The position numbers and the translations under genes were made by a program. 60,505 nt of DNA, from the NCBI GenBank assembly GCA_035457005.1, contig DATICB010000017.1:1-60505 (forward strand), written 5' to 3'. Below the pieces are notes generated by a model. It did not search any database. It had not been told where the DNA came from and saw only the letters and a list, made by a program, of their open reading frames with translations. Source of the stretch: Patescibacteria group bacterium. GTDB lineage: Bacteria; Patescibacteriota; Microgenomatia; Levybacterales; UBA12049. Shown here in pieces: positions 4,519 through 51,300 of this stretch. The first letter of the stretch is position 1. Each line of letters begins with the position of its first letter.

Positions 4519-4956
4519 ATGGCAAAAAGTAAAAATTGGCAAGACATGATGGAAGAATGGTTTGGTAAGTTGCCAAGTCTTCCAAAAGGTGGACGAGACG
4601 TATTGGCTCAGGTTGCTCCATGGTTTGCATTAATTTTTGGTGTGTTGGGAGTTTTGGCTGGTCTTGGTGGTTTAGGGATTCTCTCAGTTTTATCACCAAT
4701 GATGCTTCTTGGATCAGGACTTGGGACAACAGCAAATACACTCCTGAGTGTTGCAATAGCACTTGTTGGATCAGTTCTTATGCTTGTAGCATTCCCTGGT
4801 CTGAAAAAGCGAAAAATGCAAGGATGGAACTTACTCTTCTGGAGCGAAGCTGTATCATTTGTGTCGTCATTGGTTGCATTCTCATTTGTGGGTGGAGTCA
4901 TTGGCGCACTTATTGGATTTTATCTGTTATACCAGATTAAGTCTTATTACAAATGA
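4519..4956 (+). CDS. small integral membrane protein (3-4 TM helices), function unknown
   Basis: 145-aa ORF with hydrophobic segments such as APWFALIFGVLGVLAGLGGLGIL. The RBS aaaggtggtg lies upstream. Confidence 0.7.
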   Translation: MAKSKNWQDMMEEWFGKLPSLPKGGRDVLAQVAPWFALIFGVLGVLAGLGGLGILSVLSPMMLLGSGLGTTANTLLSVAIALVGSVLMLVAFPGLKKRKMQGWNLLFWSEAVSFVSSLVAFSFVGGVIGALIGFYLLYQIKSYYK

Positions 4957-13742: not shown

Positions 13743-14063
13743 ATGGCTGACGTCACTGATCAAAATTTCCAAGACCAAGTATTAAAATCCTCAAAGCCTG
13801 TTCTGGTTGATTTCTGGGCTCCATGGTGTGGCCCATGCAAAATTGTTGGCCCAATTGTAGAGGAATTGGCACAGGAATACAAAGATAAAGTCGATGTAGT
13901 CAAGATGAATGTCGATGATAATCCGCAAGTTTCAGGTCAATATGGTGTTATGAGTATTCCAACACTCATGGTGTTTAAAAATGGTCAACCGATTAAATCC
14001 ACTATTGGTGCACAGCCAAAAGAGGCACTCAAACACATGGTTGATGAAGCAATAGCCGCATAA
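13743..14063 (+). CDS. trxA: thioredoxin
   Basis: WAPWCGPCK active site. 106 aa. Confidence 0.95.
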   Translation: MADVTDQNFQDQVLKSSKPVLVDFWAPWCGPCKIVGPIVEELAQEYKDKVDVVKMNVDDNPQVSGQYGVMSIPTLMVFKNGQPIKSTIGAQPKEALKHMVDEAIAA

Positions 14064-14144
14064 GCTTGGTTTCGCTTTGCTCAACTCCAGGGCAAGCTTG
14101 CTGCATATGAATTGGCCTTCGGCAAAGCAGTAACTTAATTCCAT

Positions 14145-14336
14145 ATGACAGAAGCAGATCATCCCTATAATCCACAACATGACCCTGTTGATCCATGTCA
14201 TGGCGGAAAAGATATTCCAGTTCATAGAAGTAATGTGAATGGAAAAGGTCCCGAAGTTTTGGAAAGATTTGTGCCATATGACTCAAAAAGAAAAACACAC
14301 AATCCCCAAAGACAAGGAGTACCAAGCACGAATTAA
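14145..14336 (+). CDS. small Pro/His/Asp-rich protein (63 aa) with an MTE start
   Basis: Translation begins MTEADHPYNPQHDPVDPCHGGKD. It shares the ATGACNGAAG start with three other small ORFs. Confidence 0.35.
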   Translation: MTEADHPYNPQHDPVDPCHGGKDIPVHRSNVNGKGPEVLERFVPYDSKRKTHNPQRQGVPSTN

Positions 14337-15554: not shown

Positions 15555-15566
15555 TCCTTTTTTTTT

Positions 15567-15639
15567 GGGCCGGTAGCTTAGTTGGTAGAGCGTCGCTTTT
15601 GCATAGCGAAGGTCGAGAGTTCGAATCTCTTCCGGTCCA
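15567..15639 (+). tRNA. tRNA-Ala (anticodon UGC)
   Basis: Hand-folded cloverleaf: acceptor GGGCCGG/CCGGTCC with the G3:U70 alanine identity pair, anticodon loop TTTGCAT, T-loop TTCGAAT, discriminator A. CCA is not encoded exactly; the sequence reads ACCCA. Confidence 0.9.
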
Positions 15640-15727
15640 CCCATTCGTCGCTTTGCTCCTCAGGGCAAGCTTCGAATTAACGGTTGGACAAGGAGAAATG
15701 AGAAGTTTATCCCGAAGAAATGAGGGA

Positions 15728-15744: not shown

Positions 15745-16007
15745 TCATTTCGTTCAGGCTTGTTTTCTTGGACAAGCTCCCTAGTTTAGAGGGGGCTTTT
15801 CCAAGTTTAAAAGCTTGGGCTCTTTAATCCTCCTACGCTCTTTGAGCTACGGAAGGATTGAAAAGTTAAATCACTTTCTAAGGTAATGATTGGGCTTGCC
15901 CTCTCGAAGCTTTAGCGAAGTGGGGCTCTTTAACAAGTGAAGAGAAATCTCGTATTCGCGAGCATACAAAAGGTCGTCATCCGACCTTTCGCGTATACGG
16001 GAATTTA

Positions 16008-19330
<3,323 letters not shown>

Positions 19331-19468: not shown

Positions 19469-19486
19469 AGTTTTGTGTTGAAGCTT

Positions 19487-19597
19487 CGGTCTCTGGAGCG
19501 TAGTGGCACCACCTCTTCCCATTCCGAACAGAGTCGTGAAACACTTCAGCGTTGACGATACTAGATCTTTACGTTCTGGGACAATAGATCGAGGCCG
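19487..19597 (+). rRNA. rrf: 5S rRNA
   Basis: Conserved CCCATTCCGAAC block. Helix I is CGGTCTC/GAGGCCG. An extended precursor stem is TTTTGTGTTGAAG/CTTGAACACAAAA. Confidence 0.85.
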
Positions 19598-19622
19598 GGA
19601 CTTGAACACAAAACGTAAATTA

Positions 19623-19647
19623 CCTTCACGCAAGTGGAGGTTTTTTA
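19623..19647 (+). terminator. rho-independent terminator after 5S
   Basis: ccttcac-gcaa-gtggagg followed by tttttt. Confidence 0.65.
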
Positions 19648-19660
19648 TTGGTTGAGAATA

Positions 19661-19750
19661 GGCTTTGTCCTTCGGACACCAGGAAAGTCTGCCGCTAAAG
19701 AATTCGCCACCGCGAATACTATTTAATATGCGCTTTGTGCGAGCGGTAGC
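19661..19750 (+). ncRNA. structured ~90-nt RNA element, copy 1
   Basis: It is alignable to 36173-36260. The stem ATTCGC/GCGAAT here corresponds to ATTTGC/GCAAAT in copy 2, a compensatory change. The GGCUUU stem and GUCC-UUC-GGAC hairpin are preserved with G:U-compatible changes on the + strand only. Confidence 0.5.
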
Positions 19751-19754
19751 TCTC

Positions 19755-19776
19755 GGCCGGGACTTGAACACAAAAC
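19755..19776 (+). repeat. 22-nt perfect duplicate of the 5S 3' end and processing stem
   Basis: ggccgggacttgaacacaaaac occurs at 19593-19614 and 19755-19776. The similarity continues degenerately for about 65 nt. Confidence 0.9.
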
Positions 19777-19920
19777 AAATTTTTATCGTCCAAAAGTGAA
19801 GAATTTTTTGTTGAGAATTTGACACGTACCATTATTAGTTGTACGGTAAAGGTGGTATGGTATTTCCATTTGGAATTCCGACCGCACCTTCTGGACTTTC
19901 TGGCCCCGGGTTTTTCTTTG

Positions 19921-19942
19921 CCTGTCGACAGACAGGTTTTTT
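19921..19942 (+). terminator. orphan rho-independent terminator
   Basis: cctgtc-gaca-gacagg followed by tttttt. No CDS lies upstream of it. Confidence 0.6.
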
Positions 19943-20171
19943 CAAAAAATATCTTCCTAGTTCTACTTTTCAGAAAGGAGGACTGCCCATGTCTGGACCT
20001 TAAAAACCAATTGCTACAATTCTTAAGATGCTTTCTTTCATCTTCTTGAAAGAAACCTGTTTTGCAAGCAGCTCCGTTTGTAAAACAATTTGTAGGCGTA
20101 TTTAGAAAATAAAACGTCATAACTTTCTTTTTACTTTTTGAGTATATTTCTTGTTTGTCTTTATTCTTCAA

Positions 20172-29871: not shown

Positions 29872-31266
29872 ATGGCGTATAAGAAAACATCTTCTGTCTC
29901 TGATTTTGTTGGTTCTGCAATGCAAAATGCAGATGCCACGGTTGCTGACGAGCAAAAAACAGAGCCACAGCAGCCGGCTACACAACAAGATGTGAAGCCT
30001 TTTGACAGCTCTTCTGGTAAATCATTCAGACCATTTGGCGCTCCTGTTCAGCATAGACCATTCCAGCCATTCAATGAAATGGGTGGAGCACGTTCTTTTG
30101 CAAGACCCGTGCAGCATGATACCAATGGTGTTACGCAGCCTGCACAAATGGCACTCCAGGGTCCAACAGAAGAGGTCACTGGTATTTTAGATGTCCAAAT
30201 GGAAGGACATGGATTTTTACGTCCAAAATTTGTCCCAAGCAATAAAGATATTTACATTTCTGCATCGCAAATTCGCAGATTTATGCTTCGGGCAGGAGAC
30301 AAAGTAGGCGGCGTTGCGAGACCACCAAAAGATAATGAGAGGTATTATGGTTTGCTGAAAGTCGAAACAGTCAACGGCAAGAGTGCGGAGGAGACACTGA
30401 AAAGACCATGGTTTGACGACCTAACTCCAGTCTATCCAAATAAACAAATCAAATTATCTACCGGCAAAACACCAATGTCCACCCGCATTATTGATTTGGT
30501 TGCGCCAATTGGATTTGGACAACGGGGCATGATTGTGTCACCTCCAAAAGCTGGAAAAACAACCATTATTAAAGAAATTGCAGCAGGAATTTCTGCCAAC
30601 TTTCCAGATGTTCATTTAATGGCAGCACTTATTGCAGAACGTCCTGAGGAAGTAACAGATATTTCTCAATCGGTAAAGGGGGAAGTAGTTGCTTCAAATT
30701 TTGACGAGTCACCAGAAAACCAAATTCGCGTTGCAGAAATTACATTAGAGCGAGCAAAAAGACTTGTTGAAGAAGGAAAAGATGTTGTTATTCTTTTGGA
30801 TTCGATCACGCGACTTGCCCGTGCATACAATTTGGGTGTTGCACCATCTGGTCGTACACTTTCCGGCGGATTTGATCCAGCAGCATTATTCCCAGCCAAG
30901 AAATTCTTCGGTGCAGCACGAAATTGCCAGGAAGGTGGAAGCCTCACTATTATCGGAACAGCGCTTATAGAAACAGGATCCAGAATGGATGATCTTATAT
31001 ATGAAGAATTTAAAGGAACGGGCAATATGGAATTGCACTTAGTTCGATCTCTTGCAGAAAGAAGAATTTTCCCAGCAATTGATGTAGCAAAGTCAGGTAC
31101 TCGAGAAGAAGCACGAATTCTTCCAGAAGAAACCTTAAAGCAAGTTGTTACACTTCATAGAATGCTTGATATGTTGGGAGAAGGAGAGCGAACAGAGCGC
31201 TTAATGGAGCAGCTTTCCAAAACAGATGATAATGCAGATTTCTTAAAAACCCTCAAAGTTTCCTAA
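29872..31266 (+). CDS. rho: transcription termination factor Rho with a ~100-aa low-complexity N-terminal extension
   Basis: Motifs GILDVQMEGHGFLRP, Walker A PPKAGKTT, and RIFPAIDVAKSGTREE. Confidence 0.95.
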   Translation: MAYKKTSSVSDFVGSAMQNADATVADEQKTEPQQPATQQDVKPFDSSSGKSFRPFGAPVQHRPFQPFNEMGGARSFARPVQHDTNGVTQPAQMALQGPTEEVTGILDVQMEGHGFLRPKFVPSNKDIYISASQIRRFMLRAGDKVGGVARPPKDNERYYGLLKVETVNGKSAEETLKRPWFDDLTPVYPNKQIKLSTGKTPMSTRIIDLVAPIGFGQRGMIVSPPKAGKTTIIKEIAAGISANFPDVHLMAALIAERPEEVTDISQSVKGEVVASNFDESPENQIRVAEITLERAKRLVEEGKDVVILLDSITRLARAYNLGVAPSGRTLSGGFDPAALFPAKKFFGAARNCQEGGSLTIIGTALIETGSRMDDLIYEEFKGTGNMELHLVRSLAERRIFPAIDVAKSGTREEARILPEETLKQVVTLHRMLDMLGEGERTERLMEQLSKTDDNADFLKTLKVS

Positions 31267-32993: not shown

Positions 32994-32996
32994 TCT

Positions 32997-33067
32997 GGGC
33001 CATTAGCATAGTGGTAGTGCGCTACATTCGCATTGTAGATACAGCGGTCCGATTCCGCTATGGTCCA
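32997..33067 (+). tRNA. tRNA-Ala (anticodon CGC) with an atypical T-loop
   Basis: Acceptor GGGCCAT/ATGGTCC with G3:U70. Anticodon loop TTCGCAT. T-stem AGCGG/CCGCT, but the T-loop is TCCGATT, with C at the usual U55 position. Confidence 0.7.
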
Positions 33068-33071
33068 CCCA

Positions 33072-33144
33072 GGGCCGGTAGCTTAGTTGGTAGAGCGCCT
33101 CCATGGCATGGAGGAGGTCGAGAGTTCAAGTCTCTTCCGGTCCA
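33072..33144 (+). tRNA. tRNA-Ala (anticodon GGC)
   Basis: Acceptor GGGCCGG/CCGGTCC with G3:U70. Anticodon loop ATGGCAT. T-loop TTCAAGT. It lies 4 nt after the previous tRNA. Confidence 0.9.
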
Positions 33145-33184
33145 CAATTTAGCCTCAGAGTTATCAGTCAGTACGCATTGTCAG

Positions 33185-36094: not shown

Positions 36095-36172
36095 AGATAA
36101 TTTTCTTTCAGTATGTATAACTGTAACAAGGCAAAAAGTATAATGTCAAGGAGAATTTTTACTATTAACATA

Positions 36173-36260
36173 GGCTTTGTCCTTCGGATACCATGAGAGC
36201 CTGCTAGATAGTATTTGCCACCGCAAATACTACGTAATATGTGCTGTTTCAGCAGGGCAG
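36173..36260 (+). ncRNA. structured ~90-nt RNA element, copy 2
   Basis: See 19661..19750. This copy is flanked by imperfect 25-nt direct repeats: tgtcaaggagaatttttactattaa at 36144-36168 and tgtcaaggaagaaaaatactattta at 36264-36288. Confidence 0.5.
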
Positions 36261-36336
36261 TACTGTCAAGGAAGAAAAATACTATTTATATCAACTTTTC
36301 TTATAGACAAACATACTATATATAGTATGTTCTTTT

Positions 36337-39300
36337 TTAGTTGACGATTAACCAATTAAATGTTGTGTTGGTTGTCTGCTGAAGAGGAATACCAACAGTA
36401 AAGGATGTTTTATCAACTTGGCGAATTAAGTATGGTGTTATTGTGCTTTGCCCAACAGGCGTGATGTAAATAAGTGATTTGCTCGTTACTAGTTTGTTGT
36501 CGATTGTTATTTCTGTTTGGTGTGCTTTCACATCTGCGGTGCCTGCCGATCCTGTTGCAACAAGTTCGGTATTGCTCACAGCCAGAGCTGGCTCTGCTAC
36601 TTGCAGATTCAATTTGCCAATCGTTGCCGCGCCAGACGCAATGACATTACCAAGCTGGTCAATCGTAAAGATGCCAGAGCCAGACGCATTTTGAACAGAA
36701 AGATTGGATGTTGCTAATGCTGCACCTGTTGCCGTTGGATTGTTGCCTAATTTTACCGTAAGGTTACGGTCATTGCTGATTGGCGAGATAATATTTGCAG
36801 CCAAGGTTTTACTAAAGACTGCATTGCCATTGACTGTGAGGTTGCCATCAGTGTCGATTGCCAAAAGCCCTCCTTCAAAATTCACGCCTCCTTGTCGAAG
36901 TGGCTGAATATCAAATGTTGCGCCCAAGACGTTGACTCCATTGTCGGCAAGAATTAACTGACTGCCAATTGCGAGCTGTCCAGTAATAGTAGTATCAGAA
37001 AGAGTGGTAGTACCAAGACTCATAAGACCTTGTTCAAACATACCAGTTGTTGCGTCTAAATTCGGGACATATGCCAAGAACCCAGAATATGAGGCTAAAT
37101 TAGTGTAGCCAAGGTATGGATTTAGCAGTCCAGAATTGGTACTGCTACTACCACCAAGTCCTGTAGCAATATTTTCACCAGTTGGTGCTCCACTTGGTGT
37201 AGCAAAGTATATATTGGTCACATTGGTAATATTTTGAGCAGAAAGTGTACTCACCACTGCTTGCAGTCCTGCAATGGTATTAGCCTCAATTCTGTTGGCG
37301 TGGAGGGTCCCGGATACGGTAGCATCGCCATTTACTGCGAGATTTTGCGAGGTAAGAGTGCCAGAAAATGTTGCATTACCAATATTGTCAATTGTAGCCA
37401 CGGCAGATCCACTTGCGCCATTTCTTACTTCTATCCTAGAGTTTCCTAGGCTCAAAGCAATGCTATTATCTTGCCCAAGAGGCGAGACAATGCCGGTGTG
37501 AAGCTGATCAATAGATGCAATAGGCGAGTTAACAGTTCCATTATTGAATTGGCTCAAGCTTCCATTGCTGATTGCTGTCTGGACAACGCCAATAATGTAA
37601 TCGGACAGACTTTGTCCAGCGATAGTGACATTGGCAGTGGCAATAGACAGGGAATTGGTGATAGTCTGTTGTGCTTGCAAGGATCCAACTCTCAAGTTTC
37701 CAATCACTGCTTCAGACAATGCGGCAATTTGATGAATTGGATTTCCGAATATGTCAGAAAGCATGTAATAGTGGGGAATAGTAAAGTCAGCGGAGACTGT
37801 TGCATTTTGATTCATGATAATATCTCCGGTACCGCTGAGGTCCAGATTAGTAAGTTTGCCAGAAAGCATTGCAAGCTGGCTATTTGCAGACGTTGTGGCA
37901 ACATCAACTTTGGTATTTAAATCCTGAACTGCCTTGACAATAAGTGGAGTAATTCTTCCATAATCAACACCCCATGGATCTTGTGGATTCACATCTCCAT
38001 ATCTGTCGTCTGGGTTTGTCGGCACGCTGACTGCGTTGGGAAAGACATTATACAGCCATTGAGCAATAAACCCCGTCTGCAGAGGGCCTGTTGGCTCAGT
38101 TTTGTAATGGAAGTTGACAACAGGAATCTGTAAGAGCTGATCTAGTCCCATATTGGTTGGAGCAATATCTGTCTTAAGACGGATATCAGAGGTATTGGTA
38201 TAGGTGACACCTCCACCGTTTCCCTGAACAGTACCCAAGGATGTGCCGTCTCCATCAAGGTATTGTAAAAAAAAGGCAGTATCACTGGTATTTGCTCCTG
38301 CTTGAATTCTAATCCCATCACCCGAATTAGAAACGGCATCATTATGGACAACAAGCGCAAAGTTACCGCCAGTGATACCACTGGTAACAGTCATCTGCCC
38401 GGTTGCTCCCCAAATAACGTCATAATTGCCATAGGTACGATCATACAAACCCAGTTGTCCAGACGTTCCAGCGGCGTCATTGTACCATTCATACTGATGT
38501 CCTCCCCCTGGAGTTCCATCCATAATAATTATGCCTCCTGCACTGCTATGTCCTACACGAATATTTCCTGAATTAACATCAAGGGTCGCGTTTGGGGTTG
38601 TTGTCCCAATGCCTACATTGCCACCACCTGGGTTAAGAGAAATGTTGCCAGTAGTACCTAATGTTGCATTAGGAAAGGCTTCTATAACTAGTGGACCATT
38701 ATTATTTGCAAATATAGCCCCAAGAGAGGTACCGGCCCTTTTCCATGTCGTTAGAAATACACCGTCATTTACCGTGTCTATATTTAGCGCACTTAGGGAG
38801 TTATTTGCTGCTTGGTTACTCACAATATCAAGTGTTGATGTTGGATTGGCTGTTCCGATTCCAACTCTCCCAAAGGTGTTATTCACATAGAGTGTTGGGT
38901 CTACCTGGGATGGGTCTTGCTCGGTATCAACAGACACCACTGGCTCTGGGTTGGTGAATGAGCGGACATATATGGTATTAGCAGAATTGGTGGTTGCATA
39001 GCCATTGTGGGGAGTACCAGTTGGGTTTGCCAAATCGGTTACTTCTGCTGCGCTGAGTGCTGCATCATAAAAGTGTACTTCATCAATATATCCTCTAAAA
39101 AAGTGGGCATTTGATCCTGCAGATTGTCCAATCTTAAGAGATTGGGAGGAAGAAGAACCTATTGTGGAAGAGCCTCCCGTACAGGTAGAGACTTGCACGC
39201 CGTTTACATAGGCGATTGCAGATGTTCCGGATTTAGTCACGGTGACATGCTGCCACACGTCGGGTGTAAGGATAATGCCCCCATTTGACCATTTATCTGT

Positions 39301-42300
39301 TCCTGCTCCGATTGTGTTACATCGATAGGAAGCTCCATCACTCCAGCCAAAGAAATAGGTATTACCTGTTCCAGTTGATTCTAGCATATACCCACCACTT
39401 GTATTGATATTATGTTTACTAAAAATATCTGCGCTGGTAGGCTGTACTGCTCCTGGCTTGACCCATAAATCAGCTGACATGGCATTACTAAAATTAATAC
39501 TGCTGCTATTGGCAATACTGATACTGTCCCCAACCCCATCAAAATAGACACCATTGTTAAACATGCCATTAGCAATAATTCCGTTGGAAAGTGTCCCTGT
39601 ATTGCCATTACCCGATGTATCACTTTCTGTTGTGCCGGAGGTAATATCCATGCTGTATGCCGCCTGAAGCCCACTAATGGAGCGAACAAATGTATTCGCG
39701 GCAGATGAAACACTGGTGGACAGAGACAAATTGCCATAGTAGATATAGATATTTTTCTTTTCTCCTGGTGGGAGCTGGGGGACTTTTACCCAGAAAATAG
39801 TTGATGACGTATTGCAGGTACCAGGCTCCATCCAGTAATTAAGATTGGTTGTACCATCAGAATCAGTAAAGCGCACGCCAGTACAATCATTTCTCATCTT
39901 GCCAACAGAGATAGGAGCCGTTGTATTGATTGATACTTTCACTTGGTAGTCTGCATTAGCAGAACTAGATGCTGACTGGGTATTATCTACGGTAATGCGA
40001 GCACGATATGATTCACCATAACTTGATGCTATCCAGGAAGTTGGATCATAGAGCCCTGACTTAATATCTCCAGCAACAGTGAGCAGGGCAGAAGTAGAGG
40101 CAACAGATGTTGTCCCAAGCGCTACATTGCCAGTTGTCTGTTGCACATAAAAGCTGGGGAGCATTTGGGTCACAGTATTTTGCTCTTGGCCTAATGATGC
40201 AATAGTTGGCTCTGTTGATACATATGCTCGTGCTTCTTCTGTATTGGCATTACTTGCAATAGTATAGCCATAATTTTGACCCCCATTGGAATACAAATCA
40301 GTAATCTGAGATGAAGATAAGGCGATATTATAGACACGGGGCTCATCTAGGGTGCCGGTAAAGAAACCTGCGCGTGCACCTGCGTTGTAGGGGGGTGCTG
40401 CGCCAATATCCAAGACGCCTGTTGGCGCACTGCCAACAGTGATCGTTGCCGGTGTACCTGTTGAGGCACCATCAACATAGAGCGTCATGGTTGTTCCGGA
40501 AATGGTCATGACAGCGTAGTGCCAATTACCATCAGCATAGGTTGTGGCAGTACTATCAACTATATAGTCTGTTGGGTTATTAAAGTACTCTGCTTCTACT
40601 TTTCCACTTGTTAGGAAGTTAAGACCAAAAAGGGTGCGAGTCCCAATTTGGGTATCTTTTCTAATAAGAGTTTCCTTAGAGCTTGGGTTAGATGATTTCT
40701 TAAACCAAATAGCAACTGATAATGGTTGGGTGATACGCAGGTTGCTACTGTCATTGATTTCTACATAGTCGCTATTGCCATCAAATGTTCGAGCATTACC
40801 AAAAATACCGGTTGCAACAGTTGTACCCGATTCAGAAGCGACGTTATTGCCATTCCCTGAGAAATCATTCATTGGCATGTAGGTTGGCTCATCAAATCTC
40901 CAGGCACCCTGTACTCCAGAAATTTCCCGGACAAACGTACTTGTGGAAGAGGATGCTGCACTTGCGCCCGCGTTGCCATAGTACATATACATCATTTTGT
41001 TGGGACCTGGAATAAGGGGTACCTTTACCCAGAACGTCGTTGCAGTGGTATTGCAGGAATTGGGCTCAATCCAGTAATTAAGGTTAGTCGACCCATCTGA
41101 GTCGGTAAATCGTACATCATTACAACTTGAAAGCACCTTTCCAGAAGAAACAAGACCTGTGGTATCCATAACAACTCGCACCTGGTAATTGATAAGCTGC
41201 TGCCCATAGGTATTGTTGATTGAAATTTGTCTTCTGTAGCTATAGCCATCCACACCCCAATTTGTGGCATCTTTGCCAACACGTAAATCTCCATAGACAT
41301 CAAGCTTGTATTGAGCAGAGGTGGTGCCGATACCAGCAGAGCCATTAATATCCATGGCCTGTCCGGATGCTGCAGGATCGATAAAGTAATTGGTGTTATC
41401 CAAATCCTGGAAAGACCTTGCACGCAAGATACCCGAGTTGGTGAGTTGAAGCTCAGTTGCTCCGGAGGCAGAAGCAGTGAGGATATCTGCTACATTGTTC
41501 TGTTGATTGACTATGAGTGCAGAATTCCCTAAGCCGTCTTTCTCAATATCCAAAGGCCCAAGGGGGGAAGTAGTGCCAATGCCAACATTGCCATTACTGA
41601 AGTAATGAGGGCCAGATCCTGTGACATGCAATCCGGTTGCGCTTATGGTAAATGCGGAAGCATCTCCTGTTGCGAAATAATTATTATTAATGCCAAATTT
41701 AATTTGTCCTCCCGATGGGGCGTTCAAAAAGGTATAGGTTCCGTCACCGAGTAAAGAGTAATTATTACACGTGAGATTATTTGTCCCAAAAGAGATACCA
41801 CTATATCCGCCCCCACAATTTGGAGATCCAATATAGGTATATGAGCTAGATTCTCCAAGGACTTGTAACTGTTCTTGAGGACTGTTTGTTCCAATGCCAA
41901 TATTCCCGGAACTTGCTATATATAGTGCAGGATTTCCTTCACCGCTATTGCCACCAACAGAATTATAAAACCCAAGGGTTGCATTGTTGAGTAAGTCAAC
42001 TTTTGTATTTGCCGCTGTGAAGGAAAGGTTGCCGGAAGTGGTTGCTGTCCCTGCATAGGTTCCAGAACCAAAAATCTGGAATTTTGCAGAGCTTGTGGCT
42101 AAACCGCCAACTGCCAAATCATTCGTAAGATTGGCAGGAGCTAAAACTCCAAGGCTGCTCAACTGCCAGAACCCCGCGATACCGCCACTGCTTGGAGTAA
42201 CAATTTGTCTCACATAGAGCGTATCCCATTCTTGTCCTCCTGCTGTCGGATCAGATCCCAAATTGTACGTATCGTTTGTTTTTGGAATAAGACTTGATGC

Positions 42301-45300
42301 AAAAAATCCAGTTGCGGTAATGTCATCGCTAGTTGCATCGCCAAGATTTACTTTTCCATTCAAAGTTGTTGTTCCTGTCACTGTCAGTGCATTATTCACT
42401 GTTGTCGTGCCGCTTGTTCCGCCTATGTTTACATTTGTTGTCAAGGCATTATTAGCGAGATTAAGTGTTGTTGCAGCAGACCCAAAGTTAATGGTTGTTG
42501 CTGTGGTATTGAGAAGATTGACACTTGTCTGATTGGTTGCAATGGTTGCTGCATTTAAATTGATAGTTGATCCTGTGCCACCGTTGAGCGCAGTAAGTGT
42601 AATATTTCCTGTTTGACTGTCACCGATGGTAAGCCCTTGATTATTTCGTGTTGCGATAACATTTGCCGTATCGCCGTTGAACGTCAGTGTTCCGGTTGTT
42701 GTCGCATTGCCAGTATTGGCAAACACCTGGAATTTAGCAGATGCTGTACCAGTGCCACCAATTGCCAAATCATTCCAGTTATTCGTTGGATACAAGACAT
42801 TACTTGCTAAGGTCCAGTAGCCACCAACACCGCCTGTTGCAGGAAGATAGACATTACTTGCTGTGACTGCGCCAGTCAGGTAAAGATTTTTCCAAGACAG
42901 CGCAACTGAGCCAAGGTCATCTGTATTGGTTATGCTTGGTATGATATCGGTGCTGACACGGCCAGTAAAACCAATCGTATTGCCTGTACCGCTTCCCAAG
43001 ACGACATTGCCCCTAATGGTATTTGTTCCTGCTGCATTACCAATACCAATGCCGCCTGTTGCACCAGATCCGATATTGATATTAGTTGCGTTAGAATCAA
43101 AAAGACTTGCTGTACCGGCAGTTGTTGTGATATTGCCACCATTCACAGCAACATTTCCTGAGGTAGTAAAATTGCCTGTTTGGGTTATGTCGCCGTTGTT
43201 AGCAATAGAGAGTACAGTTCCAAGACCAGAATCTCCTCCAACAGATGTTTTGACATTTAAGACGCTGCCGTTGAGTAATGCAACCTGCGTTGTGGTTCCT
43301 CTGAAAGAAAGTCCCGCAGAAGAGGTTGCCGTTCCTGCGGTGTTGACGCCAAGTGTTGTTGCAAATACTTGCCATGGTGTTGCAGACCCTGTTGCATTGC
43401 CACCAACTGCCAAATCATTCCATGCATTCACAGGAGACAATACATTGTTAGTCAGCTGCCAGAATCCTGAGACGCCTCCTGAAACAGGGGAGATGAAAGT
43501 GTTTGCATAGACTGTGCCATAGTAGTGAGTTGCAGAGCCAAGATTGATTGATCCATTGCCTGTTGGAACAAGATCGGTTGCCAAAGACCCAGTGGTTGTA
43601 ATCGTGTTGGTTGAGCTTGTTCCCAAAGTGACATCACCTTTCAAATTAATTGGTGTATTCGATGCGCCAATATTCAATGCTGTGGTTGCACCTGCGCCAA
43701 AGTTAATTGTTGTTGCTGTGCTGTTTAATAAATTAAAAGTGGTCTGATTGGTTGAGAATGTGCCGCCATTGTCTGCGATATTGCCTGTGGTAGTGAGTGC
43801 ATTGTTGACAGTTGTTGTTCCAGAGCTATTGCCAATATTTAAGCTCGTTGCTGTTGGGAAGGCAGTAAAGGATGTTCCACTGCTGTCGAGCGTTGTTCCA
43901 TTTATTGTGACTATGCCGTTGCCATTTTGTGGTTTTAAGGTAATATTGCCTGTTGTGTCGCCACCAATGGTAAGGCCTGCGTTTCGTGCTGTTTGGAGTG
44001 AGCCTGTGGCTGTTAGGTAGGTGGCATTGCCATTTAACCCGGAGCTTACCGATGCAACTGGTGTTCCGGATCCTGTCATATTGAGTACTGCAAATTTTGC
44101 AGAAGTAGTTGCCGAGCCACCAATGAAGAAATCAAACGTTTCATTGATTGGGTAGAGCGCGCCATTTGTCATAGTCCACCAATTACTTGCTGCAGAAGAG
44201 CAATCACTCCAGCTTGGTGCAGATGATGCATTAGAAATAAGACATTGGCCACCTGACCCAACAGATGTGAATGCGTATCGTGTTCCATTTGAGTAGGCGA
44301 CACTTCCCGCAGAGCCTAATGTTGTTGCATTGGTGCCGCCATTAGCAATTGGCAAGATAGAACTACCAACATCTGCTGTTAAATCAATTGCGTTAAATGT
44401 TGGTGCGCCTGCACCGTTGCCGCGAAGGAAAGTATGTGCTGCGCCTTGTGCTGTTTCGGCAACAGTGCCATTGGTATCAGATAAGTACAAAATACCATCT
44501 GCTGTGGTATATTTCTTAGCGATAAGTGTGCCATCATTTTGAATGGTAAATTTGGTGACACCTGACGCCGATGCAGTAAAGATGTCGCCGTTGGGTCCTT
44601 GCTTATTGACGACCAGTGCCGAATTTCCGCCTGCGTTTGGCTGCACAGTAATATTCCCTAAACCGCTATTTTGTCCAAGAATAATATTACCTGTTCCAGA
44701 AGACAAAAGCGTCAGGTCTGCATTGCTGGTAGTCTGAATTGTTGAGGAAGAACCGTTGCCAAGCGTTACGGTCGTGCCGTTCACTGTGAAATTTCCTCCG
44801 GTTGTTGTTAGTCCTGTTCCCGTTGTAAAGCTTGATGCACCGGCAAAGGTAACGCTGCTTCCTGAGATTCCATTCAGCGGACTCAGCGTTATATTTCCTG
44901 TGGTTGTTCCACCAATGGTTAATCCCTGGTTTCTTGTGGTCTGAATAAGACTGCCTGTACCATCAAACGTCAGTGTTCCTGCTGTTGTTGCATTGCCAGT
45001 ATTTCCAAACACCTGGAATTTAGCACTACTTGTTGCTGTCCCGCCAATTGCCAGATCATCAGCAATATTACTTGGAGAGATTATTCCTGAATTCCTCTGC
45101 CAGAAACCGTCATACTGTGCTGTTGCACTTAAAATAAGCCCATTTGCGTAGACATTTCTCCAGGCGAGCGCATTCGAACCAAGATCATATAGATTATTTG
45201 CATCAGGACCGACACTGCCTGCAAGTTGCAGTCTAAATGATCCTGGATTAGTTGTGCCAATGCCAACATTATTGCCGTTAAGAATAATGTTGCCGGTTTG

Positions 45301-48300
45301 ATTATCACCAAGAGTCAGCCCTTGATTATTCCTTGCAGCAATAAGGTTGGTTGCTGCAGTACCGCTGGTAAACGTCAGTGTTCCTGCTGTTGTTGCATTA
45401 CCAGAATTGGCGAAAATTTGAAATTTAGCGCTACCGGTTGCTGTGCCACCAATTGCGACATCGTCGGTTATATTGAGCGGTGCCAAAACACCTAAATTTC
45501 TCTGCCATGTTTGTGTAATTGGCTGTCCATTCTGGTAAATATTATTCGCATAAATATTATTCCACTGAAGAGCTGCCGAGCCTAAGTCATAGGTATTGGT
45601 TGTGTAGGGGAGAATATTGGACGAAACATTGCTGTTAAAACTAATATTGCCTGTAGTGTTGCCGCCCAATGTAAGCGTTTCATTTCTCACTGTCTGAATC
45701 GTTCCGTCTGCTGCAAAATACATGCCAGTGCCATTCAATCCTGATGATACCGATGCAGTTGGTGTGCCATTAGCGATATTGAGTACTGCAAATTTAGCAG
45801 ATGTTGTACTGGTTGCTCCTACTAATACATCGTTTGTTATATTTGTTGGAGATAATGCGCCATTGTTTAACTGCCAGAATCCAAGATACTGTGAAGAAGC
45901 CGAGCCAAAGAGATTGGTAATATAGGCACTACCATAGTAATTGGCTGGAGATCCTAAATTAATACTTGTTGATTGGGGAATAAGACTTCCTGAGAAAACG
46001 CCAACTGGGTTAATGGTATTGGCGCTCGTTGCTCCCAAAACTGCATTGTTGTTGGCAGTGAAAACACCTGTTGCTGTGAGTGCGTTATTCACTGTTGTCG
46101 TGCCGCTTGTTCCGCCTATGTTTACATTTGTTGTCAAGGCATTATTAGCGAGATTGAGTGTTGTTGCTGCACTGCCAAAGTTAATTGTTGTTGCTGTGGT
46201 ATTGAGTAAATTGACACTTGTCTGATTGGTTGCCAGTGTTGCTGCATTTAAATTGATAGTTGATCCTGTGCCACCGTTTAAGGGTTGGAGCGTTATATTT
46301 CCGGTCGTATTTCCACCAATGGTGAGTCCTTGATTTCTCACTGTCTGAATTGTTCCGTCTGCTGCAAAATACATGCCAGTTCCGCTTAATCCTGAAGAAA
46401 CAGATGCTGTTGGATTTCCAGAGCCAGTCATGTTGAGGACAGCAAATTTAGCAGTTGTTGTTGCGGTGCCGCCAGCTAAGATGTCGTCAGTAATATTAGC
46501 AGGGGAGAGTGTGCCAAGATTTCTTTGCCAGAATCCTGCAGTATTGCCGGATGTAATAATGTTTTTGACATACAAATTATTCCACTCCAAACTTGCAGAG
46601 CCTAAATTATAAGTGTCAGCATCTGCGGGAATAAGATCGGAGTTGATAAATCCACTGACCGTGAGCGATCCTGTCCCATTGTTTGGTTTTAAGATAATAC
46701 CACCTGTCGTGTCTCCACCAAGAGTAAGTGGTTGGTTGCTCGTTGTTTGGATTTGAGACCCTGTTCCGGTAAACGTCAGTGTTCCGGCAGTTGTTGCATT
46801 GCCAGTATTCCCAAAGACTTGGAATTTAGCACTATTGGTAGACGTTCCGCCAATTGCAAAATCATTTGTTATATTTGTTGGGCTTAAGACGCCGCTGTTT
46901 AATTGCCAGAATCCATCATACTGTGCATTCGGACCTAAAAGAAGACCATTTGCATAGATATTTCTCCAGCGAAGTGGTGTTGTTCCATCTCCCAAATCAA
47001 AAGTATTATCAGTTGTTGGGACAAGACTGCTACCAAATCTTCCTGTTGTGACAATAGTATCAGCCGTTGCATTACCCAAATTAACATCTCCATTAAGATT
47101 TGTTGTATTATTTGCTGTGAAAATACCTGTTGCTGTGAGTGCGCTATTCACTGTTGTTGTGCCACCAGTCACGCCAAATCCTAATGTTGTCGCATTGGCG
47201 GTAAATGCATTAAATGTTGATGCAGTTGTTTGAAGAGCAGAACCATTCACAGTAACTGTTCCATTACCACTGTTTGGACTTAAAGTAATACCACCTGTCG
47301 TGTCTCCACCAAGAGTAAGTGGTTGGTTACTCGTTGTTTGGATTTGAGACCCTGTTCCGGTAAAGGTTAAATTGCCAGCAGTTGTTGCGTTACCAGAATT
47401 GGCGAAGACCTGGAATTTCGCAGTTGCTGTTGCTGTCCCGCCAATTGCTAAATCGTCTGCAATATTCGCAGGGGAGACAACGCCGAGATTCCTCTGCCAG
47501 AATCCAACCGTGGTTCCTGTTGAGATAACATTTTTTACATAGATGTTGTTCCACTCCAAACTTGCAGAGCCAAGATCATACGTATCTGTTGTTCGTGGGC
47601 CAACATTGCCTGCCACTTCGAGAGCAAAATCGCTCGTTGTTGTTGTGCCAATGCCAACATTTCCTGTTGAATCAACATAGAGTCCTGTTGTTCCTTTCGG
47701 TGATAATTGAACTGATCCTGTTGTTGCAGAGCCTATGGTGAGCGGGCGATTGTTGGTGGTTGCAATGACGCCATTACTATTCAGTGTTATATTCCCAGAA
47801 ATGGATGCAGTTGGTGTGCCAGACCCTGGAGCATTATTTAAGAACGAAAAATTAGCAGAAGAACTACTCGTACCGCCAAACAAAACATCTAATGTTGTAT
47901 TAACAGGATAGAGAATTCCATTCCCACTATCCAATGTCCAATAATTTGTTGCACCGGCAGCGGTTGAACAACTTGTCCAGCTTGGCGCACCAGATCCTGC
48001 AGAGACAAGACATTGATTTGTCGAGCCTACCGCCGTGAATGCATAATTGGTGCCGTTGGAATAGGCAACACTTCCGGCTAACCCAATGGTGTTGGTGTTC
48101 GTACCGCCATTGGCAATTGGCAAGATGCCAGTAACTTCTGAAGCTAGGTTGACACTGCTTGATGATAAAACGCCTCCTGTTGCGTGGACAACGCCTGTCC
48201 CAAGGCCACCAATAGTGACTGTTCCTGCTCCATTGAGTGGGTTCAATGTGATGTTTCCTGTTGTAGTTCCGCCAATTGTCAGTCCTTGATTTTTCGTTGT

Positions 48301-51300
48301 CTGAATAAGACTGCCTGTACCATCAAACGTCAGTGTTCCTGCTGTTGTCGCATTCCCAGTATTTCCAAACACCTGGAATTTGGCAGTACTGGTAGACGTC
48401 CCGCCAATTGCTAAATCATCGGTAATATTACTTGGAGAAATGATTCCGGAATTTCTCTGCCAGAATCCTGAAATAGTACCTCCGGAAATAATGTTGTTAA
48501 CATATAAATTATTCCACTGCAAACTTGCAGAACCCAAATCATACGTATTGGTTACTTGGGGAATGAGGTTAGAGTTAATATGGCCATTAACAGTAATATA
48601 TCCGTTGCCATTAAGTGGACTCAAGGTAATGTTGCCAGTACTGCTGCCACCGATCGTGAGGCCTTGGTTATTGGTTGTTTGAATCTGACCGACACTATTC
48701 AGCGTTATATTTCCAGAAATGGATGCTGTTGGTGTCCCAGATCCTGGCGCATTGTTAAGAAACGAAAAATTAGCAGACGAGCTACTTGTACCGCCAAACA
48801 AAACATCCAATGTGGTATTCACGGGGTAGAGACTCCCGTTGGCAAGTGTCCAGTAATTAGTGACGCCTGCTGCTGTAGAACAACTACTCCATGTTGGTGA
48901 TCCTGCCGCGCCTGAAAGAAGACATTGTCCTGCTGTTCCTACCGCAGTGAATGCATAGTTGGTGCCGTTGGAATACGCAACACTTCCAGCAGAGCCGATG
49001 CTTCCAGTATTGGTTCCGCCATTAGCAATTGGTAAAATACCAGTGATCTCGCTGGTTAGGCTAACATTAGAGGAGGAAAGCAGACCTCCTGTTGAGTGAA
49101 CAACACCTGTACCAAGTCCAGCAATCGTGACAGTCCCTGTGCCGTTAAGTGGTTTTAAGACAATATTTCCAGTCGTGTCGCCACCAATAGTCAGACCCTG
49201 ATTGTTGGTTGTCTGAATAAGTCCTGCGCTGTTGAGTGTAATATTTCCGGAAATAGATGCAGTTGGTGTACCTGCCGCATTATTCAAGAAAGCAAATTTA
49301 GCAGATGAAGATGAGTCACCGCCAAATAAGACATCGAGTGTTGTATTGATTGGGTAGAGGGTGCCATTCGCAAGTGTCCAAAAATTAGTTCCCGAAGCGC
49401 CGCTGCCACAACTGCCCCAAGTAGGTGTTCCACCGCCTGCAGACGTAAGACACTGCCCGGCAGAGCCTGCTGCTGTTTGGAAGAAAAGTCCAGTCCCATC
49501 TGCATAGAAGATTCCGCCTGCGGTGTTGTAGTTGGATGCAGTAATTGTGCCAGTATTACCCAGCGTGAATTTGCTTACGCCGGCTGCAGATGCAGTGAAT
49601 AATGCTCCTGCGCCGTCTTGATTAATGGTGACTGCAGGAATACCAGAATTAGTAGCCAGGACAGCAAAGGTGTCATCAACCTCAACAGAGCCTGTCGCTG
49701 ATGAAATATTATTATTTTGTGTTGAATTGATGAGCGGCTTTTGCAAGTCAATAAATCCTTGGCCGTCGGGCGCGATTGTTATGTTGCCATTGGTCCCTGC
49801 GTTTGTATTTAAGACAAGCGTATCGCCGCTCAAGGTGAATGCACCACCAACTGTTTGGAATGTGCTCGCTGCGCCAATAGACAAATTGCCAGCGGAGTTA
49901 AGCGCCAAAACAACATTGCTTGTTCCTGCGCCGGATTGGGTAATCGGGGGCAAGCCTTGAAGCGTTTCCGCATTAGTCGCGTAGGCAACGGTTGCCAGCT
50001 GCTGTCTTGGTGTTAGCTCTGGAGTCTGAGCAACGGTAATGCCTAAGAAAAGATTGGCATTATTAGCAAAAAGAGACTGTTGAATTGCACTTCCTTGTCC
50101 CAATAACACTGAAAAAACACCATTGGCATCAGGAGTAACATTATCGACCTCTTGCCACAAAAGAGCTGAACCGGTTGCTGTAGCGTTGGTGTAAATACCA
50201 AAACGTAAATTGGTCGAGGTTGTTATTGGATTGCTGCTACTATCTGTCAGCCTGCCTTGGAAGGAAAGAATCCTGTTTGGTTGTGCTGCTGCTAGAATAT
50301 GCTGACCATTTTGTGGGCGTGATGCAAAATTGTTGTAAAACCCAAATCCAATGACTGTCATGACAATCATGAGGATTGCCCAGTTAAAATAATGCGCAAT
50401 TGCATAACTATGATATCTTTTGTACCAGTTGGGTCGTGTATATCGTGCATGATGAATAAGTGTTTCAAGCCATGGCAACTGATTCAGTATTCTTTGTGCT
50501 GGAGCGAAAACTGACTTTGAAATATTTTTCACAGGCATAAATTGCGCAAGCCTCTTCTGCTCGTCTGTCAGCTTGTTGGTGAAAAGAGGCTTACCCCTGA
50601 GTGTCCAGATTGCTTTATGACCATGAACAACTAAGTGGGTGAGTGGAGTTATGAAAACACTGTCAAATACAAAATTGATTCCTTTTGATATCTTTTGAGC
50701 AAGTCTAAAAGGAGGAAAAGGAGAATAAGTGTGAGATTTTGTGGGTAGCGCAGTGGGTTTTGCTACACCTTCTCCATCGTCGGTAGTTAGGACATGGTCT
50801 TTTTGTTGTCTCTCTGGCGATTCAAAAGTGTTAGTGCTAGGAATATTTGTAACATCAATTGGATTGACGGGAAGACCTTTTTGATTTTGCAAAAGATTTT
50901 GACTATTTGCCCAGGCAACGTACTTACGGAGTGAGGAGAGCTTGCGGTTAATTGATGAGTTGGAAAAAGCATGTTCAGCCACAAGTGCATCTCTGTAACT
51001 TGCAAGCAGGGCATTGTCCAAGCTCTCTAAAACAGTTGCTTCTGGATTCTGTTGTTGCACCGAAGACTGTGCCCATTTAAAAAATTGTTTCAAGTCAATG
51101 ATATAGTTTTTGATAGTTAGATTGCTTGCGTTATAGACATAAAGAAAATCTTTGAATTGTTTGAGCTGGTATGGATCTTCTATATGCTGGCTAGATGTCA
51201 CCTGATCAAGTGGACTCGCGCTTACGTAGCCTTGTAATTTAAGGAAATGAAAGAATTTTCTCAAGGAAGAGACATGCCTATCAAGCGATCTTTCTGAGAG

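Follow-up and report, generated by a model that had tools for sequence, protein, structure and literature searches.

What is the short repeated segment behind the rRNA operon of the window (the whole stretch of 60,505 nt of Patescibacteria DNA that was analyzed), and does it work as an RNA? The first-pass annotation had located it twice, at positions 19661-19750 and 36173-36260, and had interpreted the differences between the two copies as compensatory changes within a structured RNA read from the plus strand. Both copies are indeed present on the plus strand. They share an exact 21-mer, GGCTTTGTCCTTCGGAYACCA (two occurrences in the window versus none expected from 100 shuffles), and show 76% identity over a core of ~92 nt. 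Their location was correct, while their edges were refined (c1 and c2 in Table 1). The element is ~95 bases long and is present in three copies within the window, all on the plus strand.

The third copy, c3, was revealed by a covariance model built from four copies (R1), from which both c2 and c3 had been left out. The same model recovered c2 and two copies from other genomes (L136 and unit A of L125), all of which were absent from its building set. A second model (R2) was derived from eight sequences (alignment A8); with this model c2 and c3, both members of its training set, score 80 and 56 bits, respectively. The covariance-model matches extend over 19654-19757 (c1) and 36166-36268 (c2). 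With filters switched off, R1 and R2 each identified exactly three copies in the window; weak R2 matches at 15768-15864, 30567-30633 and 4719-4826 (E 0.06-0.15) are treated as noise.

Four related metagenome assemblies yielded another five copies. L121, obtained from contigs around homologues of ribosomal protein S1, is a strain with 98% identity, in which one difference converts a G:U pair of helix P1 into A:U. In the more distant relative L125 (contig CAYOZJ010000012.1) two tandem units, A and B, are placed behind the 5S gene. Two copies were retrieved with a looser sequence pattern: that of L134 (DASQJJ010000050.1) lies behind 5S, and that of L136 (JAKAEF010000036.1) between the stop codon of a gene encoding a HerA/TrwB-like ATPase and a tRNA-Ile gene. 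The closest named homologues of the S1, TrxB and TPR proteins carry the labels Saccharimonadales, Levyibacteriota or "Patescibacteria group".

Model searches of ~330 kb from 30 related loci, including ~60 kb from two genomes that carry the 5S-locus copy, revealed no additional copies, so the family is narrow and of low copy number. Neither the trxA-trxB loci nor the TPR-gene loci of relatives contain the element, i.e. counterparts of c3 and c2 were not found there. A locus search with the S1 protein alone gave a single irrelevant match (Gluconacetobacter), and one with an S1 alignment gave 18 loci and no new copies. The 21-mer GGCTTTGTCCTTCGGAYACCA used as a pattern had no match in genomes or viral contigs and one in metagenomes (L120, 4542-4566), where 25 nt identical to the 5′ end of c2 lie inside a 3-hydroxyacyl-CoA dehydrogenase-like coding sequence; as the flanks on this unrelated contig do not match, the similarity was judged to be due to chance, as were all 119 genome matches to the 16-mer GGCTTTGTCCTTCGGA. 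The pattern TTYGCCACCGCRAATACTA gave 11 matches in genomes, three of them genuine (L134, L136 and L137), and 90 in viral contigs, none of which is the element: one is a promoter-like chance match and the other 89 (19-nt P3 pattern; IMG/VR contigs L142-L231) represent one conserved phage coding sequence (...GFNIFATANTKGKGSDDGRFIGTNVLN...). A literature search found no description of this RNA.

Table 1. Positions in the window of the element copies, the helices of c1 and the neighbouring signals
Feature	Position	Strand	Remarks
c1	19659-19748	+	rRNA-operon copy; model match 121 bits; orthologues in L134, L125 and L121
c2	36171-36264	+	stand-alone paralogue between two minus-strand genes; 57 bits with R1
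c3	14056-14165	+	divergent, partly decayed, between trxA and trxB; 25.9 bits, E ~2e-4 with R1
c1 P1	19660-19666 with 19684-19690	+	
c1 P1a	19667-19670 with 19674-19677	+	nested hairpin
c1 internal loop ACCAGG	19678-19683	+	conserved
c1 P2	19691-19696 with 19742-19747	+	
c1 P3	19702-19707 with 19712-19717	+	loop CACC
c1 joiner UACUAUUUAAUA	19717-19728	+	conserved
c1 P4	19729-19733 with 19737-19741	+	
5S rRNA gene	19485-19600	+	RF00001, 59.5 bits
Left repeat arm	19585-19659	+	5S 3′ end, T1, short spacer ending GAGAAU
Terminator T1	stem 19622-19641 plus U-run	+	good intrinsic terminator
Right repeat arm	19747-19818	+	second 5S 3′ end, degenerate T2, GUUGAGAAU
TATAAT	36139-36144	+	perfect; 27 nt upstream of c2; candidate -10 box, no good -35
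AT-rich palindrome AACAUACUAUAUAUAGUAUGUU then CUUUUUU	36310-36338	+	candidate terminator, ~45 nt downstream of c2

Comparison of the copies revealed five helices (P1, the nested P1a, P2, P3 and P4) arranged in two domains. Within the 5′ domain, P1 (AGGCUUU with AAAGUCU in c1) holds the small hairpin P1a, on whose 3′ side lies a conserved six-base loop. The 3′ domain is a three-way junction in which P2 (GCCGCU with AGCGGU) encloses P3 (AUUCGC-CACC-GCGAAU), followed by the conserved joiner and P4 (UGCGC-UUU-GUGCG in c1). The three changes that had originally suggested an RNA are all present in the sequences of c1 and c2: P3 becomes AUUUGC-CACC-GCAAAU in c2 (C:G to U:A), the 3′ strand of P1 becomes AGAGCCU (G:U to G:C and U:A to U:G), and GUCC-UUC-GGAC of P1a ends in GGAU (G:C to G:U).

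In the alignment of eight copies, 94.2% of pair cells form standard pairs, and changes on both sides occur in 21 of the 30 pairs (five genomes); these counts refer to an alignment fitted to the model and containing only ~6 independent sequences. None of 500 column shuffles reached any of five covariation measures, and sliding the 3′ partners by 1-3 columns lowered pairing to 33-43%. All five helices have covariation support. P1, P1a, P2 and P4 have been almost wholly rewritten between lineages with pairing retained, e.g. P1a is GUCC-UUC-GGAC in c1, GUCCGCC-UAG-GCGGAC in L134, UUUUGC-UUU-GCAAAA in L125 unit B and GCAGUUGA-...-UCAACUGC in L136. The scan of relatives and the covariance model, two of the checks proposed with the first-pass annotation, therefore left the covariation intact while adding five copies plus c3; the P2 three-way junction, c3, the direct repeat of the 5S 3′ end and terminator around c1, and the homologues elsewhere had all been absent from it.

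The eight copies contain 14 G-U pairs versus a single A-C pair, and reading the same structure on the minus strand lowers pairing from 94.2% to 88.5%; both observations favour an RNA of the plus strand and, together with the covariation, support the earlier reading. Folded singly and compared with shuffles, c1 and c2 give z = -2.1 and -2.6 on the plus strand and -1.8 and -0.8 on the minus strand. Each copy alone thus folds only modestly better than shuffles, and the case rests on the comparison between copies. The 3′ part of c2 (P2/P4 region) can also form one alternative hairpin. While c2 retains 27 of 28 model pairs, c3 retains 20 of 25: its 5′ domain is intact (AAGCUUG/CAAGCUU stem and CCAGG), and its 3′ domain is degraded. 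In L125 unit A (510-604) P1 with CCAGG is intact, P3 and P4 are degraded, and P2 appears to be a new helix, UUGUAAU with AUUACAA, to which the following unit contributes its ACAAU flank.

Copy c1 is located in the tail of a tRNA-Ala(UGC)-23S-5S operon; no 16S gene is present in the window. The order of the tail is 5S, terminator T1, spacer, element, a second 5S 3′ end and terminator T2, and with T1 between 5S and c1, the element follows the 5S terminator, as had been noted earlier. The 5S gene has an extended helix I, in the fold of which the leader 19470-19493 pairs with 19591-19614 (inverted repeat I1). The segments 19585-19614 and 19747-19776 are 90% identical over 30 nt, with 22 of 22 positions matching over GGCCGGGACUUGAACACAAAAC, and GUUGAGAAU is present in repeated form at the end of the locus, after T2. 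The right repeat arm corresponds to the single terminator of element-less relatives. L125 and L134 have the same layout as the window, with well-formed T2 hairpins, and in both genomes the two 5S 3′ segments, proximal and distal, have the same lineage-specific changes (GAGACC...CUUUAG in L125, AAUUCA in L134). The distal segment is still able to pair with the 5S leader. The concerted changes of the two segments would be explained either by gene conversion or by selection.

No sigma-70-like promoter was found upstream of c1 or c3. The ACAAU/GAGAAU hexamer that abuts P1 resembles a -10 box and was considered as the element's own promoter; because transcription would then start inside the covarying P1 stem, it is taken instead for a single-stranded motif of the flank, where cleavage may occur. 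The terminator scan flagged P3 plus the U-rich joiner as terminator-like.

Several other features of this region were recorded. The 23S rRNA gene (16015-19322) spans 3308 nt versus the 2925 positions of the Rfam model and therefore carries ~380 nt of insertions. No homing-endonuclease ORF was found in it; LAGLIDADG ORFs are present in L252 and L254 where 23S is expected. Three tRNA-Ala genes (UGC, CGC and GGC) occupy 15566-15643 and 32996-33145, the last two being adjacent. A second conserved non-coding block (19819-19945, plus strand) lies between the element and rpsA, and is also found in L121 (300-400) and L261 (640-760). It comprises TTGACA-17-TACGGT, then GGUAUGG..UUCC..GGAAU..CUUCUGGACUUUCUGGCCCCGGGUUUU, and a terminator at 19920-19937. 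Since the block is also present in a relative without the element, it is independent of the latter; it might represent a leader of rpsA or a further small RNA.

The 5S locus exists in filled and empty forms. In L122-124, L261, L233, L234 and L254 the 5S gene is followed directly by a T2-type terminator. A rough S1 tree grouped L122-124 and L261 with the window and placed the more distant L233, L234 and L254 outside this group. The three filled lineages share a similar (orthologous) T1, and the one terminator of the empty lineages corresponds to T2. This pattern is most simply explained by one old insertion or duplication and a later, precise loss in the L122/L261 branch by recombination between the repeats. 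Given that the same-clade relatives L122 and L261 have no copy, the element is dispensable. Between filled lineages, which share 68-70% identity of their S1 proteins, the element core is 75-81% identical in global alignment and 73-85% in model alignment, and its 3′ domain 84-89%. The corresponding values are 86-90% for the 5S gene and 58% for T1 plus spacer. Compared with the latter, the 5S-linked copy is conserved to an extent that indicates purifying selection on both sequence and structure.

Copy c2, which had been placed between the giant gene and an O-antigen-ligase-like gene and described as antisense to both, does lie between two minus-strand ORFs, of 5052 and 689 residues, and is antisense to both. 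The ligase identity was not upheld: the 689-residue protein has Pfam matches only to TPR families and no O-antigen ligase domain. A consensus promoter scan at c2 identified no complete plus-strand promoter. The palindrome downstream of c2 was not called by the terminator scan because it has too few G-C pairs; as it also follows the stop codon of the giant gene, it could work bidirectionally. A good promoter-like site for the TPR gene is located at 36120-36149 on the minus strand (TTGACA-18-TACAGT with TG), and its -35 box adjoins the TATAAT of c2 by one base, which suggests divergent promoters. Besides the giant ORF (36337-51495, minus strand), ORFs of similar size, 5053 and 5231 residues, occur in L125 and L256; synteny differs, with extra TPR and dockerin genes between the giant ORF and the TPR gene in L256.

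The start of two copies coincides exactly with the UAA that ends the preceding gene, i.e. trxA (c3; 14061-14063) or the HerA/TrwB-like ATPase gene (L136; 7351-7353), and all copies begin with UAA or UAG. The C-terminus of TrxA has the same length as in the element-less L251. Within the degraded 3′ portion of c3 lies the AUG of a 63-residue ORF without a Pfam match (14145-14336, plus strand); relatives differ greatly in their trxA-trxB spacer, where the small ORFs present in L250 and L251 are different ones. All copies but c2, i.e. seven of eight (five of six loci), point in the same direction as a gene or stable RNA upstream of them: 5S in the window, L121, L125 and L134, trxA for c3, and a coding sequence and tRNA-Ile in L136. 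The 5′ domain of c3 resembles the L134/L125 form of P1 (75-81%). Divergence of c2 from c1 (76% identity overall, 70% in the 3′ domain; the L134 orthologue, 85%) has left nearly all its pairs in place despite the 30% change in the 3′ domain, and c3 has lost pairs. On these grounds c1 is taken to be the probable principal gene; c2 would be a paralogue that has been maintained, and c3 a long-dead copy, i.e. a pseudogene.

A gathering-threshold scan of the window with Rfam 15 identified only 23S, 5S and three tRNAs, and a search at E<=10 over the c1, c2, L134 and L136 variants gave no match on the element, including none to SRP, 6S, tmRNA, RNase P, Y RNA, rtT or known self-cleaving ribozymes. The failure to recognize the first four of these families from the letters alone was therefore borne out. 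The sole Rfam match touching an edge is Chlorobi-1 on T1 (17.7 bits versus a cut-off of 50). The element is a previously uncatalogued structured RNA family of narrow distribution, found only in one subclade of Patescibacteria.

Features of other kinds of element were also sought. No terminal inverted repeats, a trait of MITEs, join the ends of the element, the 5′ end AAGCUUGG being unrelated to the reverse complement of the 3′ end CCGCAAGC. A flanking repeat of ~70 nt is clear at the 5S locus; elsewhere shuffles frequently scored as high as the flanks (318/3000 for c2, 1212/3000 for c3 and 2420/3000 for L136). A candidate target-site duplication at c2, TGTCAAGGAGAATTTTTACTATT resembling TGTCAAGGAAGAAAAATACTATT by eye, was not significant versus shuffles, and neither was the similarity of the c2 flanks to the c1 terminators. 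The element is branched and present in three copies in 60 kb, and not a simple palindromic hairpin in many copies as in REP/REPIN sequences. No reverse transcriptase, transposase or integrase gene was found near it. The template/variable repeats of a diversity-generating retroelement were rejected, since the c1-c2 mismatches (C/T, G/T, A/G and T/C among them) are not adenine-specific and are compensatory in stems. The small ORF that opens with the AUG of AAUAUGYGC was rejected as well, since neither L134 nor L125 unit B conserves it. The copies do not occupy a consistent 5′ UTR position before one gene class, as riboswitches and leaders do: downstream of them lie, variously, rpsA beyond terminators, the 3′ end of the giant gene, a small ORF plus trxB, and tRNA-Ile.

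We propose, with somewhat less than even confidence, a small, stable non-coding RNA that has the element as its core and is cut from the rRNA precursor after read-through of T1. The principal gene would be the copy in the tail of the tRNA-Ala/23S/5S operon: polymerase passing T1 would transcribe the element and the second 5S 3′ strand and stop at T2. The element would then be excised from this tail by endonucleolytic processing, aided by the duplicated 5S 3′ segment. The likely cuts would fall in the single-stranded ACAAU/A at the 5′ edge and in the duplicated 5S 3′ processing segment at the 3′ edge. If released from the rRNA operon transcript, its output would follow rRNA synthesis. The second paralogue, c2, apparently would have its own -10 box and terminator, and c3 would contribute nothing. 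The released RNA would act in trans; its elaborate junction and its conservation of unpaired motifs (CCAGG, CACC and UACUAU) suggest binding to a protein and not base pairing through a simple seed. The tandem units and the sharp conservation of ACAAU/A at the 5′ edge also leave room for the idea that the element may be a self-cleaving ribozyme. Against a processed RNA stand the apparent strength of T1, with which the yield of element transcript could be low, the degenerate T2 of the window genome, the antisense orientation of c2 to both its neighbours without a recognizable -35 box, and the very narrow family, missing from the same-clade relatives L122 and L261.

The distribution of copies could instead be that of a selfish, non-autonomous dispersed element (a MITE, SINE or small cassette), whose fold serves mobility through an RNA or single-stranded DNA intermediate and not the host. 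Three copies at unrelated loci within 60 kb, with a fourth kind of locus in L136, the precise edges of filled and empty sites (L122, L261, L233 and L234), the relatives' trxA-trxB and TPR-gene loci without c3 and c2, the tandem doublet of L125, the ~70-nt direct repeat around the 5S-locus copy and the two copies starting exactly on a stop codon all agree with this. We nevertheless hold it to be unlikely: copy number is very low, with ~330 kb of relatives devoid of further copies, its ends do not form inverted repeats, the flanks of c2, c3 and L136 show no significant repeats, no mobility enzyme is encoded nearby, and the 5S-linked copy is under purifying selection, while the orthology of T1 in three filled lineages argues for one old event and not for repeated insertion. 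A purely cis-acting transcript tail (an exonuclease block, a platform for processing of pre-5S or tRNA, or a double-terminator insulator), with no role once released, is a further candidate to which we assign a similarly low probability. In E. coli rrnB, 5S is followed by tandem terminators (T1 and T2), and REP-type elements are a precedent for structured RNA stabilizers downstream of genes. The terminator-like P3 and joiner accord with such a tail, as does the placing of copies downstream of a gene or stable RNA read in the same direction, between or beside terminators, although c2 has no such gene upstream. Moreover, a multi-helix junction with conserved CCAGG, CACC and UACUAU exceeds the needs of a stabilizing hairpin, conservation of the 3′ domain (84-89%) is above what structure alone requires, and relatives manage with 5S and a single terminator.

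Two readings inspired by the neighbouring genes appear very improbable. The element might be a degenerate 5S duplicate, left by a tandem duplication that copied the 5S 3′ end, given that in c1, L125 unit B and L134 the element passes directly into a repeat of the final ~30 nt of 5S and that the 3′ domain is, like 5S, a three-way junction. However, the Rfam 5S model RF00001 finds only the true 5S, even at E<=10, and c2, c3 and L136 have no 5S tail. Smith-Waterman scores of the cores of c1, c2, c3, L134 and L125 unit B against the resident 5S are at or below shuffle means, from which it follows that the element is not a diverged 5S; this origin is effectively excluded at the sequence level. Equally remote is a riboswitch or ribosomal-protein leader controlling rpsA (S1): c1 and its orthologues do lie upstream of rpsA on the same strand, yet at least one terminator and a separate promoter-like site precede rpsA, which is 480 nt away, and element-less relatives retain the same upstream block. 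The unrelated genes that adjoin c2, c3 and L136 argue strongly against such a leader. Finally, we see a slim chance of a new functional class tied to ribosome biogenesis, either a ribozyme or protein-scaffold RNA that takes over 5S maturation signals or a SINE-like "master gene"; the latter could be the first bacterial structured-RNA master in an rRNA operon, seeding copies elsewhere in the genome.

Few regulatory RNAs are known from Patescibacteria, whose genomes are tiny, so a conserved, elaborately folded RNA in the rRNA operon is a candidate for growth-coupled regulation or a ribosome-related function in these symbionts. The 5S locus offers a clean natural comparison, with close relatives that carry or do not carry the element. 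Models R1 and R2 and alignment A8 could form an Rfam submission, and the family is also suited to metatranscriptome follow-up. The architecture of the locus is informative, and the evidence so far shows no new kind of mechanism.

Among known systems, the repeat families REP/REPIN, ERIC, BOX, RUP and Correia resemble the element in being intergenic, ~100 nt long, foldable, co-transcribed with neighbours and polymorphic for presence or absence. The element differs from REP- and MITE-type repeats in its branched fold, in lacking terminal inverted repeats and, judging by the flanks compared, a short target duplication of fixed length, and in its copy number, which is 1-3 per genome region where those repeats number tens to hundreds. 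SINEs of eukaryotes that descend from stable RNAs likewise have a conserved "master" in a highly transcribed stable-RNA locus and decaying scattered copies, of which c3 is reminiscent. In contrast to SINEs, the element has no A-rich tail and no partner reverse transcriptase, and outside the 5S locus its flanks show no significant duplication; to our knowledge, a SINE-like system has no bacterial precedent. The sRNAs LhrC1-5 of Listeria and Qrr1-5 of Vibrio also comprise several diverged paralogues per genome, sometimes in tandem (compare L125 units A and B), and conserve structure and short unpaired motifs. Each LhrC and Qrr gene has its own promoter and terminator, and the RNAs pair with mRNAs through a single-stranded seed, whereas most copies of the element are without a promoter and no target complementarity was found.

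By analogy, not homology, the closest known arrangement is that of rtT RNA (rttR, RF00391) in the tail of the E. coli tyrT tRNA operon, which is also a small RNA in the 3′ tail of a stable-RNA operon with repeated units. Each tyrT repeat also carries a tRNA 3′ end, and rtT is freed when the operon transcript is processed. Similarly, c1, the L121 copy, both L125 units and the L134 copy lie directly after 5S and T1 on the same strand, and at the c1 locus and in L125 and L134 the element is bounded by a repeated stable-RNA 3′ end, the duplicated 5S 3′ end matching the tRNA 3′ end of the tyrT repeats. The two RNAs have no sequence or structure match (RF00391 gave no Rfam match), the host gene is a tRNA for rtT and 5S rRNA for the element, and the element, unlike rtT, is also found away from stable-RNA operons (c2); its processing is our proposal. 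The shared layout suggests a general route by which new small RNAs borrow the processing signals of stable RNAs.
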